From the IMG/VR virus record IMGVR_UViG_3300025000_000056: a stretch of 51,153 bases of DNA, one strand, 5' to 3'. A program made the translations under genes and the position numbers. The DNA comes from a virus (Duplodnaviria; Heunggongvirae; Uroviricota; Caudoviricetes). Of the stretch, positions 42,009 to 50,891 are shown piece by piece; the stretch's first letter is position 1; every line of letters starts with the position of its first letter. The notes beneath the pieces were generated by a model that had not been told where the DNA came from, ran no database searches, and worked only from the letters and a program-made list of their open reading frames with translations.

Positions 42009-43214
42009 TTAGACTGCTTTCCAGTAACCTCTTACACTTGGAAAACTTGTCATGCCGCTATCGTTAGTAAGATAGACCCACCAGTAATAAACTGTGCCAA
42101 ATACTATTCCGTCTTCATTGCATGTATACGTGTTATCGATATTCGGTTGCTCAATTTTACCGGTAGCGCCTGTTGGATCATTAAAGACTACATCGAATAC
42201 TGAACACACTTCATCATAACTCCAGCTCCATACCGGATGGATCGTATTGACGATATTAGGATCGTCGCTCGTAAGGCCATTACAGCTTGTCAATGTGGGA
42301 GGTAAACCGGTCATAAAGTAACCATCCGAACTAATGTCACTCGTATTGTTATAACTGTCCATAACTTGAACGTTCCAATAGTAAAGGCTATCAGCATTTA
42401 ACGTGGTGGCTGGTAGAGTTACACTTGTAGCACTACTATTAATCCAGTTTGTCTGGAAGACATTAACGCCATCTGAGTCATAGACATTAACAATATAGCT
42501 GGATTGTGGATTGTTTTCCGGATCAGTATAATGCCAAGATAGTACTGGTCTAATATATTTACACTCGTTCGGAGTACCTTGTGTTCCGTTAAATGTTAAT
42601 AGACTAACATTTGGATTAAGATTTGGCAAGGTGATATGGATGTATCCCGTCTCAACGCTTGCAACGGATGGATCGAAATGGCCCCATACCATCCATCGAT
42701 AGTCCAGACCATTCTTTAAAACTAAAGGACCCGTGGGTATTGTATGTGTTCCTGAAGTCTCATTCGTTATATTTGTTGGTATAGCCGTATCAATTGATAG
42801 TGATCTTAAGTCCTTATCAAGTGAATTGTAGAAGACGACGAAGGTATCGGCACCGTCTATAAAGCGTATCTGAACCTCTAAATCAATCGGTGAGTAATTA
42901 CAACTCCAAGTTAATGTTGGAGTTAATGTCGTACTAACGACGGGCGATTCTTGGGTGCCGATAAAGTTTGTTAAGTGAACGATTCCTGGGATAGGAGCAA
43001 TCTTAAAATAACTCTTATCTGAGATAGTCGTAGCTCCAGTTACAGTGTCCGTTACAGAAGCTGTCCAGTAATAATCCGTACTTACGATTAATTGATCAGT
43101 CGAAACAGTAATGTCAAAGTCTCGATTAGTATTTACGAGAGGAATCGTAGTGTAAACTTCACTATCGTCCGAAACTTTAAAGATACTGATCCCGGTACTT
43201 ATCGTTGTTGCCAT
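42009..43214 (-). CDS. FN3/Ig-like repeat protein: N-terminal half-domain plus 3 domains
   Basis: Starts mid-repeat (...YYWTASVTD...SDKSYFK), then three repeats of the giant-protein type. Confidence 0.7.
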   Translation of the reverse strand: MATTISTGISIFKVSDDSEVYTTIPLVNTNRDFDITVSTDQLIVSTDYYWTASVTDTVTGATTISDKSYFKIAPIPGIVHLTNFIGTQESPVVSTTLTPTLTWSCNYSPIDLEVQIRFIDGADTFVVFYNSLDKDLRSLSIDTAIPTNITNETSGTHTIPTGPLVLKNGLDYRWMVWGHFDPSVASVETGYIHITLPNLNPNVSLLTFNGTQGTPNECKYIRPVLSWHYTDPENNPQSSYIVNVYDSDGVNVFQTNWINSSATSVTLPATTLNADSLYYWNVQVMDSYNNTSDISSDGYFMTGLPPTLTSCNGLTSDDPNIVNTIHPVWSWSYDEVCSVFDVVFNDPTGATGKIEQPNIDNTYTCNEDGIVFGTVYYWWVYLTNDSGMTSFPSVRGYWKAV

Positions 43215-43558
43215 TCAATAGCCTCCTATACAGTTACTCTAAAGTAACCATTATCACTCAAAGGACCCCATAATCCTCGACTGTCTTTAACTTTTCCATT
43301 CCAGTAATAATCTCCATTTGGATAATGACCCGCGATTGTTCCACCTGTTACGTGTTCAATAAGTGTTCCGTCAATAGAATAAATAAAAGCTTCCCATGAA
43401 TCCACGGTATCTCCATCAGGGTCATTATAGCCTAATGTAAATATAGGATCTAAGGTTGTCATAGGTGCTGGATTATCTATGGTTCCATTGTAAGACGTTA
43501 ATGTACAAGTCGGTGGTGAATTTGAAGCAATCTTAAAATAACTCTTATCAGAGATAGT
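42996..43558. repeat. 33-nt direct repeat pair (42996-43028 and 43526-43558), 32/33 identical
   Basis: AGCAATCTTAAAATAACTCTTATC(T/A)GAGATAGT, encoding TISDKSYFKIA in both genes. Confidence 0.9.
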
Positions 43559-43735
43559 TGTGATACTACCATCATTAACAGTAGCAATCCAATAATAAGT
43601 ATCATCAAGTATTAATAAGCTACAGTCAACAAGTAAATCAAAATCACGAGAGGTACCGGCAACTGAGTCCATAGTTTTAATTAGGCTATCATTACTATCG
43701 TAAATATTGATAAATGAACTTAACATTGTTGGCAT
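43226..43735 (-). CDS. FN3/Ig-like repeat protein: N-terminal half-domain plus 1 domain
   Basis: Starts SSFINIYD...YYWIATVND...SDKSYFK, then one full repeat. Confidence 0.7.
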   Translation of the reverse strand: MPTMLSSFINIYDSNDSLIKTMDSVAGTSRDFDLLVDCSLLILDDTYYWIATVNDGSITTISDKSYFKIASNSPPTCTLTSYNGTIDNPAPMTTLDPIFTLGYNDPDGDTVDSWEAFIYSIDGTLIEHVTGGTIAGHYPNGDYYWNGKVKDSRGLWGPLSDNGYFRVTV

Positions 43736-43752
43736 TTAATAACCTCCAGTAT

Positions 43753-43790
43753 TAGGACTAACTCGTGGGATATCCCACGAGTTAGTCCTA
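43753..43790. repeat. Perfect 38-bp palindrome between the giant gene and its partner
   Basis: TAGGACTAACTCGTGGGAT|ATCCCACGAGTTAGTCCTA. Confidence 0.9.
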
Positions 43791-43805
43791 TAATATTAAT
43801 GATCC

Positions 43806-46800
43806 TTAATCATTATAACGATAGGTGAAATGAACTACATGATCTACAGGATTGGCAACTGATAATGGACTAGACAAGGTTCCGAGAGGACTTAATAAGG
43901 TGATCGTCGGTTCAACAACAACAGCGGGTTCAACCGTAAAATAACCCGGAGTAGAGATAGTCTTCTTACCATTGACGTCCGTTACTTCGGCCGTAAGATG
44001 ATAGACAACATCTTCAGTAAAGAAAGATACTGCAGCAGGTTCTACTGCGCTATCACCGGGAATCATTGAGGCCACAACATCTTTAGTCCAAACAACCGTG
44101 TCACTAGGATCATAGATTATTAAAGTCGTACTAGCGACATTGACGGCTGTATTGCAATTATACTTCCAGCCAATAGTAACGTCCGTATCGTCTGGAATAG
44201 TAACAATTGGGGTAGTTAGAGTTCCATTACAAGTCATGAGTGTTACCGAAGCATTCGAGACAACCGTGCCACCTTCTGTTCGGAAGTAAGCAAAATCACT
44301 ATTTGGACTTAGCGTACCTAGAGTGTTCTTAACTTGAACCGTCCAATGATAGGTAGTTCCGGCTACTAGTTTACCACTTGGTATAGTACGAGACTTAGAA
44401 GCGCTTGTTACCCAATCAGAATTATAGATAACAACACCAAGATCGTTATAAAGCGTGACGTTATAAGCAGCTTGTGGCTTATTAACGGGATCAATATAAC
44501 TCCAGGTTAGAGCAGGTGGAAATAAAACACAACCCGTACATCCTGCAGGAGCAGCTTGTGTTCCATTGTAAGACTTAGCAGCAACCCTAATTGGATTGCC
44601 TTGAGCTAGTTTAAAGTAGCCCGCCTTACTGGTTCCAACGTTATCGTCTACATCCGTTACTTCAACTGTCCAATGATAGACGACGTCTTTAGTTAGCGTA
44701 AAGGCAATTCCGGAGCTGATTCCACATGGACTATATATTGTATCCGTATCGGTCCGAGTGAAGACAACCGTATTACTAGCGTCATAAATTGTTATTACGC
44801 TTTTCTTAGCATCCTTTGCTAAGGGATGAACATAACGGAACATGAAATTAGGAATGGATTTTTGATCAATAAACGGAGTAGCTAATGATCCATTATCGCT
44901 TTCTAAAGTTACGATAGGATTATTGGTGTTCTCGGGTGTCTTGAAATAACCATGCTTATCAATAACGCTCATGTTACCCGTGGTATCCTTGACTTGGATG
45001 GTCCAATGATAGGTTTCATTCGAATCCAGTGGTCCAGCGACAACGGTTGTTGCAGTGCCGTCAGTCCAGCCGGAAGTATACTCGACCCCTAAACTGCTAT
45101 TGTATACGGAAACGCAGTAGGACGCCTGTAGATTCGACTGAGCTTGATAATAAGACCATGTCAAATTTGGAGATGTGGTATCGCAAGCAGCAGGGTTTGT
45201 GATAATTCCATTGAAATTAGTTGGGCTTGCCACGGGAGACGTACCAAGAACCGTTTTGAAATAGACCGGGTCAGATACTTTGCTTAGATTACCGTTCGTA
45301 TCTTTAACCTGAATCACCCAGTGATAGACGACTGACACGAGTAACTTAGACTCTGGCACTTGAATCATTACATCGCTACCAACAACCCAATTCGAATCCC
45401 AGACTATGGTGTTACTATTGTCTGATACGATGATGTTAAACATCGCTTGATCACTATTTTGTGCTTGATAGTAAGTCCAGGTCAACGACGGTGTTAGAGT
45501 TGATGCAGAATAGGGTGAAGCAAATGTGCCAGCATAACTAGCCGGAGTAACAATAGGTAAGGTATTGGTTGCTGCCCTTGTGAAGAAGTAACCGTAATTA
45601 CTCATAGGGCTTATTAGGCCTTTATTATCCTTAACGATAACGCACCATTTATAGGTATTGTTAGCATTAGGGATCTTTCCAGAGGGCACCGTGATCTCCT
45701 TGATACCGCCACTTACCCAGTTCGAAGAGTAAACTAAGTCTCCCGTGATTGAATCATAAACCGTAACTAAGGAGTCTCCCTCGGGATCATTGTTTTGATC
45801 ATAATAGCTCCAGTTTAATTTAGGAATCAATGTGTTGCAAATTACGGCTGTTGACACGGTTCCATTATAGCTTGTTAAGATTGGCTTATCAGGAGCTTTG
45901 TTTGTACTAGCTACTGGTTTAAAGTAAGCCTTGATACCTACAGGGCTCTGAATGTTGTTGCTATTCTTAACTGAGATATCCCAATAGTAAAGCGTACCTA
46001 CAGTTAATGGAACGTTCGTGATACAGAATTGCTCTGAACTGGTTTTCCAATTTGAACTATATACAATGGTTCCGGTAGAATCATAGATCTGAGCCAGATA
46101 CGATGTTTGTGGATTCTTACCGGCATCGATATAATCCCAGGTCAATGCAGGAGTTAAGGTGAGACATTCCTTAGGACTTGTGACATCGCCATTGTAGTTA
46201 TTAGGAATAGCCACTGGGAAACTATTGTTAGTACCGGTTGTCTTAAAGTAGCTAGGAGCAGTCGTAACACTTTCTCCTCCTTGAGAATCCGTTACGGTAA
46301 CTTTCCAGTAGTAACTTGTATTTCCAGCCAAGGGTGTTGTCAATAGATGATAATACCGCTCATCCTCTATTGCGCCACTCGTCGAAACCAAGACTCCAGC
46401 CGTACTATAGACATCAACGACGTACGACACTTGAATATCTCGATCAAGATCAGAGTACTTCCAAATGAAGAGTGGAGTATATGATGGAGAAATAACAGGA
46501 GCGTTAATAGGTCCATTGTAATTTGCCGTAACGACAACAGGTACTCTATTAAAAATAGGTTTAAAGTATCCTTTTGAACTTACTCCGCTATTACCCTTAG
46601 AATCAAATACCGTAACATACCAGGAGTATACTCTTCCACTGGTGAGTTTGTTTGCCGGTACGACCGTATTCTTAGATAGGCTATTCGCAATGCCAGTATC
46701 ATACACTACGGCATCTGTCTCAACATCAATGATGCCTACGTTAAAGGATTTTTGTATATCGTTATCGGCATCCGTATAGGCCCAGGATAGTACAGGTGTT

Positions 46801-49800
46801 AAAGTCGTACAGGCATCAGGATCTTCTTTGGTTTCTCCGCAGAAACTTGAAAGTACAACAGTCGGAGGGTTGTTTATCTCAGTTGAGGTAGGCTTAAAGT
46901 ATCCATTAGAACTTATAGGACTCATGCGTCCGCTTGTATCTTTGACTTGAATCTTCCAGTAGTACATTACATCTTCACTCAATACTGTAGAGGTAACATC
47001 ATATGATGTTGCAGTACCGGATGTCCACGGAATATCAATGACCGTAGCATTTGTCGTAGCAGCGCAAACCGTTAGTTTATAAGAACCTTGTGGAACATTC
47101 TTTGAATGATGATATGTCCATGTTAATGTGGGCTTCGTGGTTGTTTCCGTAGGATTAGAAATAGTGCCATAACAACTAGTTAGTCCAGGTTTATCAGGAG
47201 AAGCTACTGTACTGGTACCCGTAGTTTTGAAATAACATACTCTACCGTCAGCGGACGCCCCGGTGGAATCCGTTACAGATACTTTCCAGTTATAATTTGT
47301 ACCTTCAAGAAGACGACTAGCACTTGGAACAGAATAGTAACGGTTCTGACTTGTGATAGCTCCTGTATTGATTATCTCAACACCATCTGAATTCCTAATA
47401 ACAACCGTATAGGTTTTCTGTGGATTCTTTTCCTTATCGCTATAACTCCATGTCAAGGTTGGTAATAGAGTACTAGACACAGAAGGAGCTGCCGAGGTAC
47501 CAGTATAGCTTGTTGGCGTTACGACAGGAGGAGTATTAGCAGCTTCATTACTATACTTAAAATAACAAGGATCTGTCATGATACTGACTTCTCCACTACT
47601 GTTTTTATCCTTAACTTGAAGGATCCAGTAATAGACGGTTCCAGCAACAATTCCATTGGGCACCGTATAGGTTTTAGCAGAACTAGTAATCCATCCAGAA
47701 TCTTTAATTCGTGTCCCTGAAGCTGTAAAGACTTGAACATGATAAGCACCCTGTACATCATTGTCTGCGTCAGTATATTCCCAAGTTAAGACCGGCTTCA
47801 GGGTTGTACTAGTTGCCGGCTCAAGCTTCGTTCCTTTGTAACTCGTAGGAACAACGACAGGAGCTGCGTTAGGAGGAGGTGTTCCGGTTTTGAAATAGCC
47901 ACTGCGAACCGGTGAGCCTTTAGCGCCGCGCTTATCACTTACTGTTACAGTCCAATGATACGTAGTGCTTGGTGCTAGTTTACCGAAAGGAACAACATAA
48001 CGAAGAGCCGAACTAGTAACTGTGCCGCTCGTATGAACAAGGGTATTACTACTACTGAAGATATCTACTTTATAGTTGTACTGTACATCATTGTCGGGAT
48101 CTTCATATTCCCAAGCTAAGCTGGGAATCGTATTGTCACAACTTGATACTTCAGACTCATCACCATTATAATTTGACAAGATAATTACCGGCACATGGTT
48201 AACGATTGAAGGTAGAGTCTTGAAATAGTTTTGAGAACTTACGAGACTCTCATCATCTTGATTATCTTTAACTTGAACCGTCCAGTAGTACAATGTGTTG
48301 TACTCTAAAGAAGAGGCCTTAGGTGTGTAGTATTTAAGAGTACTTGGTTCATAATCTATAGCATCAGTCGACGCACTAACAGGCGTTGTATTACCAACCT
48401 TATAAATTAAGACCTTAAAACCAGACTGTGGATCATTGTCAGTATCTTTGTAAGTCCAAGTAAACGTAGGATTTAACGTCGTGCAATCCTTAGGTGATGC
48501 TAAGGTTCCCAAGAAGCTCGTAGGACTTACAGTTGGTTTAGTATGGGGTCGATCAATGGTCTTAAAGTAAACTGGGAAACTTGTTAAGCTCATATTTGAT
48601 TTTGGATCCTTAAGCTGTACTGTCCAGGAATAGACTGTTAGTGGATCAAGTTTTAAATTCGTAGCCGTATAGGTCGCCGCTGAAGAACTTATTAACTTAG
48701 TATCTCTAACTACAGCTCCCTGATCATTATAGATTATTACTCTAAAGGCTGTTTGAGATGTTGCTCCAGTAAAAGTCCATTTGAATATTGGAGCCAATAA
48801 GGTATTACAGGCTGCAGGACTACCGACAGATCCATTTAAGTTATTCGGCGTTACAACAAAGGTAACAGGAACGCCCGGTGTTTTAAAATATCCCATAGGA
48901 GATACTTGACTCGTAAGGCCACGACTATCTTTAACTTGGACATTCCAATGATATATAGTCCCTGTATTTAATAGAGAATCAGGAACCTTAAAGTAATCAT
49001 TAGAACTTCCTGTCCATCCCTGTGAGGAAATTAATACGCCTGAAGCATTGTAGACACGGACAGAATAAGAACCTTGTGGATCATTATCTGGATCAGTATA
49101 ATCCCAGGTTAGAATCGGCGTTGTATCTTGAGCAAGTACAGGACTAGAAGGAGAAGATCCATTGTAATTTACTAACGTGGCACTCGGCGGATGATTAACT
49201 AAGGCATCGCTCGTTTTAAAGCTAACCCATGGGCTCGTAGGACCTTGACTGCCGCCTGGAGTCTTCAATGTAATACGCCAAGTGTATTTAACGCCTCCAA
49301 GTAGTTTAATAGGGAACGTCTCATCAATCATATAGCTATTGATAGAACTATTAATCCAGCCAGAGGTCTGAGTATAAATTATACTTCCATAGCTACCAGA
49401 GAACATCTCAACCTTGAAAAAGCCTTGTGTCTTACCGGTATCTGACGGATCAATACAGTCCCAAGTTAACGTTGGAGTCAATGTATCACAGGGGTCTGGA
49501 ATTAATGATGTTCCATTATAGCTTGTAGGATTACTGATGACAGACGTAATGACCTTAAAATAACCTTGTTTAGAGATTAGACTTTCTAGACCAATAGTAT
49601 CCCGCACCATAACCTGCCATGAATGAACAGTATTCGTCGATATACCAACACCACTATGTGTATAGCTAGTATTTGAACTAAGAATCCATGGAGTCCATTG
49701 TCCGGCAACTAAGAGTCTAAAGGCCGCCTGTTCATAACCGTCGTATTCATTATAGTTCCAAGAAAATGTGAGACCTTGAGTGTAGCCTATTTCAGGCGTT

Positions 49801-50195
49801 GCACTAGTCAGTCCATTGTAATTAAGTAGATCGGGCTTAGGTGGAGCCGTGGGAACTGTAAAATAAACTGGTACGCTCCAATCTCCAAAACTACTCATAC
49901 TCTCTCCAACTCGAACTTGCCAGTAATACGTATAGCCCTTATAGGCTTCAAGACTCATTGAAGAGATATATGGAAACGTATGACTTGATGCTGTACCGGT
50001 AACTAATCCATAGCTTGCTACCGTTGTCTCGCCGGTTCCGCTATTCTGACGCATGATTCTTAATCCATAGATTTTATATTGATTTGTGCGAGTCCATGTT
50101 ACCGTAACGGGTTGAATGATTCCGAATGGCACGTTATTACCACTCGAAGAATTCCCGTTCGTTGTCATGGCGGTTTCATACATAGTTGAACTCAT
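43806..50195 (-). CDS. Giant virion fibre-like protein with 19 complete FN3/Ig-like repeats plus a C-terminal half-repeat
   Basis: Repeat of about 108 aa: P.L.W.Y.D.D.DPQ.SY.V.VY...SGW...L..G..Y.W.V.VKD...YFK; I count 19 YFK-type ends. Confidence 0.8.
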   Translation of the reverse strand: MSSTMYETAMTTNGNSSSGNNVPFGIIQPVTVTWTRTNQYKIYGLRIMRQNSGTGETTVASYGLVTGTASSHTFPYISSMSLEAYKGYTYYWQVRVGESMSSFGDWSVPVYFTVPTAPPKPDLLNYNGLTSATPEIGYTQGLTFSWNYNEYDGYEQAAFRLLVAGQWTPWILSSNTSYTHSGVGISTNTVHSWQVMVRDTIGLESLISKQGYFKVITSVISNPTSYNGTSLIPDPCDTLTPTLTWDCIDPSDTGKTQGFFKVEMFSGSYGSIIYTQTSGWINSSINSYMIDETFPIKLLGGVKYTWRITLKTPGGSQGPTSPWVSFKTSDALVNHPPSATLVNYNGSSPSSPVLAQDTTPILTWDYTDPDNDPQGSYSVRVYNASGVLISSQGWTGSSNDYFKVPDSLLNTGTIYHWNVQVKDSRGLTSQVSPMGYFKTPGVPVTFVVTPNNLNGSVGSPAACNTLLAPIFKWTFTGATSQTAFRVIIYNDQGAVVRDTKLISSSAATYTATNLKLDPLTVYSWTVQLKDPKSNMSLTSFPVYFKTIDRPHTKPTVSPTSFLGTLASPKDCTTLNPTFTWTYKDTDNDPQSGFKVLIYKVGNTTPVSASTDAIDYEPSTLKYYTPKASSLEYNTLYYWTVQVKDNQDDESLVSSQNYFKTLPSIVNHVPVIILSNYNGDESEVSSCDNTIPSLAWEYEDPDNDVQYNYKVDIFSSSNTLVHTSGTVTSSALRYVVPFGKLAPSTTYHWTVTVSDKRGAKGSPVRSGYFKTGTPPPNAAPVVVPTSYKGTKLEPATSTTLKPVLTWEYTDADNDVQGAYHVQVFTASGTRIKDSGWITSSAKTYTVPNGIVAGTVYYWILQVKDKNSSGEVSIMTDPCYFKYSNEAANTPPVVTPTSYTGTSAAPSVSSTLLPTLTWSYSDKEKNPQKTYTVVIRNSDGVEIINTGAITSQNRYYSVPSASRLLEGTNYNWKVSVTDSTGASADGRVCYFKTTGTSTVASPDKPGLTSCYGTISNPTETTTKPTLTWTYHHSKNVPQGSYKLTVCAATTNATVIDIPWTSGTATSYDVTSTVLSEDVMYYWKIQVKDTSGRMSPISSNGYFKPTSTEINNPPTVVLSSFCGETKEDPDACTTLTPVLSWAYTDADNDIQKSFNVGIIDVETDAVVYDTGIANSLSKNTVVPANKLTSGRVYSWYVTVFDSKGNSGVSSKGYFKPIFNRVPVVVTANYNGPINAPVISPSYTPLFIWKYSDLDRDIQVSYVVDVYSTAGVLVSTSGAIEDERYYHLLTTPLAGNTSYYWKVTVTDSQGGESVTTAPSYFKTTGTNNSFPVAIPNNYNGDVTSPKECLTLTPALTWDYIDAGKNPQTSYLAQIYDSTGTIVYSSNWKTSSEQFCITNVPLTVGTLYYWDISVKNSNNIQSPVGIKAYFKPVASTNKAPDKPILTSYNGTVSTAVICNTLIPKLNWSYYDQNNDPEGDSLVTVYDSITGDLVYSSNWVSGGIKEITVPSGKIPNANNTYKWCVIVKDNKGLISPMSNYGYFFTRAATNTLPIVTPASYAGTFASPYSASTLTPSLTWTYYQAQNSDQAMFNIIVSDNSNTIVWDSNWVVGSDVMIQVPESKLLVSVVYHWVIQVKDTNGNLSKVSDPVYFKTVLGTSPVASPTNFNGIITNPAACDTTSPNLTWSYYQAQSNLQASYCVSVYNSSLGVEYTSGWTDGTATTVVAGPLDSNETYHWTIQVKDTTGNMSVIDKHGYFKTPENTNNPIVTLESDNGSLATPFIDQKSIPNFMFRYVHPLAKDAKKSVITIYDASNTVVFTRTDTDTIYSPCGISSGIAFTLTKDVVYHWTVEVTDVDDNVGTSKAGYFKLAQGNPIRVAAKSYNGTQAAPAGCTGCVLFPPALTWSYIDPVNKPQAAYNVTLYNDLGVVIYNSDWVTSASKSRTIPSGKLVAGTTYHWTVQVKNTLGTLSPNSDFAYFRTEGGTVVSNASVTLMTCNGTLTTPIVTIPDDTDVTIGWKYNCNTAVNVASTTLIIYDPSDTVVWTKDVVASMIPGDSAVEPAAVSFFTEDVVYHLTAEVTDVNGKKTISTPGYFTVEPAVVVEPTITLLSPLGTLSSPLSVANPVDHVVHFTYRYND

Positions 50196-50234: not shown

Positions 50235-50891
50235 CTAGTTGTATTGTGGGTTAAAGTAGATGATCTTAGAATCAACGGCATAGCCAATGATTTGTACGGG
50301 CCCTGTGGTCGGTTTTATAGACGTTATAGACCCTGCGACAGTAGGACTTACGTAGAGTAATGCGCCCTTAGTAAAATTCCAAGCAATGTTTTTAAGATAT
50401 CCTTTCTTCAAGATAACCCTGTCACCTGCAGCGGCGGTTTCTGTAGCTATAGCTACACAAGGTAGATACGTAATATCTGAGGCCTTAGATAAGGCGTATC
50501 CCTCAATGGTTAAATAAAGTAAGCTTCCTATATCGGTATCGATTGAAACATATTCCTTAGATAATTCACCGCTATAATCTCCATCGTTAATAGGCATTAG
50601 CGATACAGCCTTATTTGATAAACTACCAAGATCTTCAACAAGGACGTAGTCACTTGATGGGTGACCGTTTAATCGAATGGCATCAATATTACCTAGATCA
50701 AACGGCTTAACTAAGTTATCAACGGCAAACATGACCTCTCGAATACCGATAACTAAATTAGCAATTTGTTCATCAAGTTCGGCAAACTTAACAGCGTTTT
50801 GATTACTCATGAGCTGTTGATAAAGACTCTTCTCTAGTGGGGAAGGTTCCTTAACAAAGGTTCCATCTTCCTTTTGTGAAACGACACTCAT
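50235..50891 (-). CDS. Virion decoration/fibre protein (DUF2190-like C-terminus)
   Basis: DAIRLNGHPSSDY fibre-type motif; GALLYVSPTVAGSIT...IIGYAV...FNP. Confidence 0.55.
   Translation of the reverse strand: MSVVSQKEDGTFVKEPSPLEKSLYQQLMSNQNAVKFAELDEQIANLVIGIREVMFAVDNLVKPFDLGNIDAIRLNGHPSSDYVLVEDLGSLSNKAVSLMPINDGDYSGELSKEYVSIDTDIGSLLYLTIEGYALSKASDITYLPCVAIATETAAAGDRVILKKGYLKNIAWNFTKGALLYVSPTVAGSITSIKPTTGPVQIIGYAVDSKIIYFNPQYN

Follow-up and report, generated by a model that had tools for sequence, protein, structure and literature searches.

Proteins with an immunoglobulin (Ig)-like fold that is completed by a neighbouring protein are known from chaperone-usher pili (Fim, Pap, Caf1), in which each incomplete subunit receives a strand from the next one, resulting in a non-covalent fibre. 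What pilins lack is the C-terminal G strand, for which a single N-terminal strand is substituted in a process that requires a periplasmic chaperone and an usher. A related joint has been found in the crystal structure of the baseplate tripod of Lactococcus phage Tuc2009, where a 25-residue hairpin at the C-terminus of BppU completes a sheet of domain 2 of BppA, the composite resembles a titin Ig domain, and BppA, as an accessory protein, provides the adhesion device with a second carbohydrate-binding function (PMC4742702). Here we analyse a stretch of 51,153 nucleotides (nt), hereafter the window, which is contained in a 117-kb IMG/VR record (IMGVR_UViG_3300025000_000056) of an uncultured groundwater jumbo phage. 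In the window, a giant fibre protein built of Ig-like repeats ends within a repeat, and two small genes downstream, which we call tipA and tipB, both start with the part that is missing. The original prediction, made from the letters of the window, was that the half domains associate and thereby attach interchangeable tips to the fibre.

Alternative distal parts of phage fibres and interrupted phage genes are also known from systems that work in a different way. The G segment of phage Mu and the C segment of phage P1 are flipped by a recombinase, so that a fused fibre gene is read one way or the other. In gene 60 of phage T4, on the other hand, ribosomes leave the message at a take-off codon that is accompanied by a stop codon and a stem-loop, bypass a gap and resume at a matching landing codon, which restores a continuous functional protein. 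The phage studied here is a distant relative of Bacillus phage 0305phi8-36, whose fibre and baseplate module comprises gp163-gp175 (PMC2147016).

The divided repeat and its three genes

The giant protein scores 419 bits in 13 stretches against the Pfam family PF25788 (Ig_Rha78A_N; gathering cut-off 27.4 bits). A hidden Markov model (HMM) with 102 positions, built from the repeats of the giant protein itself, resolves 19 repeats followed by a terminal fragment (aa 2096-2128), which by itself matches only positions 1-30. The structural model of repeat 19, with a predicted local distance difference test score (pLDDT) of 92.7, exhibits the seven- to eight-strand β-sandwich characteristic of Ig_Rha78A_N, with strands A, A', B, C, C', E, F and G, and a Foldseek search with this model retrieved Ig-like sandwiches of a generic kind, among them GbpA and the N-terminal Ig domains of rhamnosidases (6i60 and 3w5n). 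In some NCBI records of the same phage the giant gene has been called in pieces (897, 966 and 487 aa), and a JGI variant of the protein carries 28 substitutions, all of them in the first 1061 residues; the C-terminus ...YRYND is the same in every cluster member that reaches that end.

Both downstream proteins continue the profile where the giant protein leaves it. In tipA, aa 6-68 match profile positions 39-101 and are followed by one full repeat, while in tipB aa 7-71 match positions 40-101 and are followed by three repeats, the first of which is divergent (positions 2-80). If the C-terminus of the giant protein is joined in silico to the N-terminus of tipA or tipB, a single domain is obtained that covers positions 1-101 (61.7 and 59.6 bits, respectively), in which the last residue of the giant protein, D2129, falls at position 33 and the start Met of either tip at position 34, with no insertion or deletion (indel) and nothing missing or duplicated. 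Mapped on the model of repeat 19, the split site is the B-C loop: the giant protein supplies strands A, A' and B of its twentieth repeat (the plug), and each tip protein supplies strands C, C', E, F and G (the socket). As three gene ends fall on one profile position, coincidence can be ruled out as the origin of this pattern. Thus, the original description of a giant protein that stops partway into repeat 20, of two genes that begin with the missing part, and of one or three further repeats behind it, holds in full. tipB alone is recognized by Pfam as well (58.4 bits against PF25788, above the cut-off); tipA has no Pfam match, yet its full repeat matches the giant protein's own repeat profile at E 4e-27. 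This only complete repeat of tipA (window positions 43226-43513, minus strand) is about nine residues shorter than the others and its model lacks a strand in the E region; judged by the model, it is a trimmed terminal domain. The features of the locus are listed in Table 1.

Table 1. Features of the split-fibre locus (positions refer to the window; aa, amino acids; RBS, ribosome-binding site; ORF, open reading frame)
Feature	Position	Strand	Basis
218-aa gene, head of the inserted module	50235..50891	-	sequence comparison
Giant fibre protein, 2129 aa: 19 Ig_Rha78A_N repeats and a terminal one-third repeat	43806..50195	-	ORF list, translation, Pfam, own-repeat HMM
Plug, giant residues 2089-2129: linker, then repeat 20 up to the B-C loop (strands A, A', B)	43809..43931	-	joined alignment, domain-19 model
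8-bp RNA hairpin enclosing the giant's last two codons and TAA stop	43797..43815	-	RNA fold of 43840..43715
Perfect palindrome of 38 nt within the 70-nt gap; folds as RNA into a 17-bp stem with a 4-nt loop	43753..43790	.	RNA fold, palindrome scan
GGAGG RBS of tipA; TAA in the tipA frame directly 5' of the ATG (43738-43736)	43743..43747	-	read from sequence
tipA, 169 aa: N-terminal socket (strands C to G of repeat 20) and one full repeat	43226..43735	-	own-repeat HMM
tipA socket, residues 1-72	43520..43735	-	profile 39-101 alone, 34-101 joined to the plug
36-nt patch at the end of the tipA socket, encoding TTISDKSYFKIA, strand G	43526..43561	-	repeat family D11
GGAGG RBS of tipB, overlapping the tipA TAG stop; in-frame TGA directly 5' of the ATG (43217-43215)	43222..43226	-	read from sequence
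tipB, 401 aa: N-terminal socket and three repeats	42009..43214	-	own-repeat HMM, Pfam
tipB socket, residues 1-75	42990..43214	-	profile positions 40-101 alone
36-nt patch, tipB counterpart, encoding TTISDKSYFKIA	42996..43031	-	repeat family D11

The tip genes are equipped for translation on their own. The GGAGG motif lies 7-8 nt ahead of the ATG in both of them, and the spacers are 70 nt long between the giant gene and tipA and 11 nt long between tipA and tipB. Because each tip gene has its own GGAGG and ATG and an in-frame stop codon just before the ATG, fusion to the giant protein by read-through or frameshift is excluded, and tipA and tipB are polypeptides separate from it. The earlier claims that each downstream gene has its own ribosome-binding site, and that the split is not a simple frameshift error, are thus confirmed, while the statement that both genes are out of frame with the giant gene is correct for tipA (73 nt, out of phase), but not for tipB, which lies 594 nt away in the same phase, with stop codons in between.

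The same arrangement is found in other assemblies and in another strain. Two fetched 225-kb contigs (JGI and ENA; groundwater, SRR1658472) are 100% identical to the window over 11.5 kb, and the identical 769-aa protein encoded next to tipB is listed in 31 blocks of the collection, with the same neighbouring genes in 24 of the 24 contigs read. A 3.6-kb contig of a related strain, L015, which comes from a sediment metagenome of another project (SRR944699), shows 98.5% identity, with 55 single-nucleotide polymorphisms (SNPs) and no indel in 3603 nt, and in it the junction (43847 to 43684) is unchanged. Since the junction has been reproduced in independent assemblies and in a diverged strain without indels, it is, judging from these comparisons, not an assembly artefact. 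Between the strains, the ratio of the proportions of nonsynonymous and synonymous differences (pN/pS) amounts to 0.05 over the final 936 codons of the giant gene, 0.10 for tipA and 0.04 for the socket codons of tipB, which indicates that all three are under purifying selection; within the plug, the five strain SNPs comprise three synonymous changes and two V-to-I replacements.

The two sockets are more similar to each other (47% identity) than to the second halves of all other repeats (14-31%), and share the motifs RDFD and TTISDKSYFKIA, which are not present in the other repeats. Between the sockets, pS is 0.62, i.e. near saturation, while pN is 0.36. As the paralogues are nearly saturated at synonymous sites and pN is lower, the split form is old and has been kept twice, and on this evidence the socket is to be regarded as an ancient unit that was duplicated and maintained, not as debris. 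One segment departs from this divergence: the two 36-nt patches that encode TTISDKSYFKIA are 94% identical, with both differences synonymous, against pS 0.69 in the remaining socket codons, which suggests either gene conversion or a strong constraint. The tipB patch of L015 reads exactly as the tipA version over its first 18 nt (contig positions 3586-3603), and the contig ends inside the patch; this signal may reflect either gene conversion or a contig-end artefact, and we do not rely on it.

The structured gap and the inserted fibre module

The region before tipA is predicted to fold into two RNA hairpins (-40.7 kcal/mol, z -6.2). The 38-nt sequence that forms the second of them is the longest perfect palindrome in the window and occurs there in a single copy; it has no copy in viral_contigs and no significant match in Rfam, no run of T follows it, and it was not called a terminator. 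It might be a site of RNA processing or stability, an attenuator or a protein-binding site, and one may speculate that it sets the ratio of shaft to tip at the RNA level.

The giant gene, tipA and tipB are all encoded on the minus strand, and the gene of the 769-aa virion protein comes next after tipB. Versions of this phage of ~225 kb are known from aquifer samples. The 769-aa protein matches gp171 of 0305phi8-36 with 33% identity over 100% of the query (tblastn), and the window proteins of 769, 580, 663 and 393 aa match PHROG families annotated as virion structural proteins, phrog_20243, 21108, 19683 and 19670 being matched by these neighbours at E 1e-81 to 1e-151. The order of the gp171-gp175 homologues has been retained, which places the phage among the 0305phi8-36-like jumbo phages, and, judged by its relatives, the lineage infects Firmicutes.

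In the full genome, a gp163-like second giant protein (2700 aa, with Big_1 and Invasin_D3 domains) is encoded upstream of the end of the window, followed by four conserved genes. In relatives at ~40% identity, found via the gp171 homologue, the conserved upstream genes are followed by a 78-aa gene and then directly by the gp171 homologue, and these relatives carry a different fibre module. By comparison with this gene order, tipA, tipB, the Ig_Rha78A_N giant gene and the 218-aa gene constitute a lineage-specific inserted module of ~9 kb that encodes an extra fibre; as the conserved gp163-like giant protein is also present upstream, the split fibre is an additional appendage. The 218-aa protein at the head of the module matches the 78-aa gp170-like protein of the relatives with its N-terminal 50 aa (37% identity), while its C-terminus shows a weak likeness to Phage_cement_2 (PF09956; E 0.011, below the cut-off) and also to phrog_4368. 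The added C-terminal domain may be an anchor for the extra fibre.

Searches for other members of this fibre family were unproductive. Neither the fibre nor tipA had a match in phage records by blastn and tblastn, and no related locus was recovered from viral_contigs when tipA, tipB or the neighbouring 769-aa protein served as the query. When a profile built from both sockets was run with HMMER against the full set of 1.84 billion representatives, the only matches were these two sockets and two weak ones to interior repeats; with the last 370 residues of the giant protein as the query, the protein itself was the sole match. No PDB chain matched tipB in phmmer at E 0.01 or better, no such split was seen in gp163, gp165 and gp166 of 0305phi8-36, and searches of the literature on strand complementation in phage fibres yielded no direct description of the arrangement.

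Proposed assembly of the fibre and rival explanations

On balance, we lean towards a modular fibre that is assembled after translation by completion of the split Ig-like domain in trans. The giant protein would form a shaft of 19 beads, and its last 33-41 residues (strands A, A' and B of the twentieth domain), unable to fold alone, would act as a plug. The N-termini of tipA and tipB (strands C, C', E, F and G) would each present an open socket, followed by one or three complete domains, so that plug and socket fold into one sandwich and a short or a long distal piece is joined to the shaft without a covalent bond. As both pieces would compete for one plug, the fibres would occur in two forms. 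Given one plug and two sockets in the DNA examined, it is reasonable to regard the two tips as alternatives on the virion; binding, competition between the tips and a role in host recognition are what we infer from the arrangement.

Association of the halves was addressed by a complex prediction for residues 1-75 of tipA and residues 2089-2129 of the giant protein, each supplied with an alignment of paralogous half repeats. The interaction prediction score from aligned errors (ipSAE) was 0.58 (runs 0.63, 0.58 and 0.58), against 0.00 for the best control, which is graded as weak support. The runs agree in at least 94% of contacts, with a partner pLDDT of at least 74, and both chains reach pLDDT 75-81 together, as compared to 34-57 in the controls. 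Among 80 solved complexes, 58 passed the mark applied to such predictions, and so did 2 of 110 mismatched pairs; a pass at 0.60 or below was seen for only seven of the 80 and for both of these mismatched pairs. The counts hold only roughly here, because self-made paralogue alignments were used in the prediction. A complex of the giant C-terminus with a tip N-terminus, which the original prediction had offered as a way to check it, has been predicted in this way for the tipA socket, at the strength just given. As a whole, the idea that complementation of a split domain joins the tip to the fibre is partly supported: it agrees with the exact split, the independent genes, the selection and the reproducibility, and draws on a single weak complex prediction as far as physical association is concerned.

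Several points weigh against assembly in trans and should be kept in mind. The complex score is in the weak range, and two halves of one domain may reach the mark because they resemble solved Ig folds. Besides, the models do not indicate that the socket needs a partner: AlphaFold2 with the paralogue alignment predicts tipA alone at pLDDT 91, with the socket open and confident, which decides nothing about stability, because a confident fold is to be expected with such an alignment. The count of one plug leaves aside ~90 kb of the ~225-kb genome, where a second plug could lie. Finally, there are no relatives of the fibre in the databases searched, and the comparative evidence for conservation of the split extends to one strain-level variant.

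Alternatively, the split could be a leftover of module shuffling or gene fission, with three real proteins but no pairing of their half domains. In that case, both the tail of the giant protein and the N-termini of the tips would be remnants, flexible or folded only in part, while the small proteins would be attached at another site or function on their own. Such an origin would suit the weak complex score, the unique palindrome in the gap, and the ~9-kb lineage-specific insertion into a conserved gene order, which reveals recombination in this region. Remnants should decay, however, and yet the plug and the sockets show mostly synonymous strain differences, the socket has persisted across a duplication whose synonymous sites are saturated, and the cut falls at the same profile position in three genes with nothing missing or duplicated. 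We consider this explanation unlikely, but worth taking seriously.

Quite improbable, in our opinion, is a recombination switch that operates through the near-identical 36-nt patches, either in addition to competition between the proteins or in place of it, so that the type of tip varies in the population. It would result in a 530-bp deletion that fuses the tipA socket to the body of tipB, or in conversion of one socket into the other. The identity of the patches amid sockets that are otherwise strongly diverged at synonymous sites is what such a switch would leave behind, and the tipA-like reading of the tipB patch in L015 points in the same direction; on the other hand, the gene order is the same in all contigs read, the L015 signal is confined to the final 18 nt of that contig and could be an assembly artefact of the contig end, and the 12 residues encoded by the patch constitute the conserved G strand, so protein constraint together with codon bias could explain part of the identity.

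Recoding that fuses the giant protein to tipA, by bypass of the 70-nt gap as in gene 60 of T4 or by a frame shift, is very improbable. The stop codon of the giant gene does lie within an 8-bp hairpin that is followed by the very stable 17-bp one, but a TAA closes the tipA frame directly before the ATG, which is itself preceded by a canonical GGAGG. The first in-frame GAT that matches the take-off codon is codon 13 of tipA (the next one being codon 16), and landing there deletes strand C; moreover, the same half domain is also found in tipB, at a distance of 594 nt and after a gap of 11 nt that lacks such a hairpin. An assembly or sequencing artefact or a pseudogene can be practically dismissed, because the 11.5 kb are identical in the JGI and ENA assemblies, no indel affects the junction in the strain of 98.5% identity, which comes from a different project, the gap forms a structured spacer of 70 nt rather than a homopolymer slip and the genes are under purifying selection, while nothing was found in favour of it, the fragmented gene calls in some NCBI records lying elsewhere in the giant gene.

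Joining of the halves would provide a simple rule for building and diversifying very long phage appendages, in which a regular repeat is divided in a loop with both halves retained, and the distal pieces can be exchanged while the 6.4-kb shaft gene remains untouched; it would help to read the fibre modules of uncultured jumbo phages, in which such short genes are usually left as hypothetical, and it would offer a natural two-strand split-Ig pair as a tool for coupling proteins. It is also conceivable, although we propose it with some hesitation, that plug-and-socket joints derived from tandem Ig-like repeats cut in a loop are common in phage fibres, and that in the present case one plug and two sockets produce two fibre ends in a single virion population without DNA rearrangement, the spacer sets their ratio and the 36-nt patch lets sockets and bodies re-assort by recombination. 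The locus would then encode a natural split-domain coupling system for exchanging the distal ends of a fibre.

Comparison with known systems

The locus shares with gene 60 of T4 a stop codon and hairpins, here at the gap between the giant gene and tipA, but differs from it in the position of the in-frame landing codons, which lie inside tipA at the cost of strand C, so that a bypass would not restore the domain. As in Mu and P1, one constant part of the fibre would be combined with one of two alternative distal parts; unlike in these phages, however, both distal parts have the same orientation and their own start signals. No invertase gene was noticed in the fibre module or within 10 kb on either side, although no search of the window was aimed at invertases. 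With 0305phi8-36 the phage shares the genomic position of the module and its structural-protein neighbours, whereas neither 0305phi8-36 nor the nearer relatives possess the Ig_Rha78A_N giant protein and the two tips.

The original prediction drew its analogy from pili, and this analogy stands with respect to the principle, since an incomplete Ig-like fold would be completed by a neighbouring protein, but not with respect to the details. The missing strands are the N-terminal A, A' and B rather than the G strand, and the donor would be the C-terminus of the preceding protein. Genes for a chaperone or an usher are absent from the fibre module and from 10 kb on either side, and none were found among the genes called in L010, L011 and L016.

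The closest solved precedent appears to be the BppU-BppA joint of Tuc2009, with which we claim likeness of mechanism, not membership in the same family. In Tuc2009, a C-terminal extension of one virion protein completes an Ig-like domain of a second protein; here, the alignment and the model fit such a geometry, and the weak complex prediction suggests that the plug may act likewise. In contrast to Tuc2009, the cut goes through the B-C loop of a regular repeat from a tandem array, the socket lies at the N-terminus of its protein, and there are two paralogous sockets for one plug. Thus, while the principle of an Ig domain completed in trans is already known from pili and from Tuc2009, what seems to be new in this comparison is a tandem repeat divided in a loop, with the socket at the N-terminus of the partner and with two sockets for one plug.

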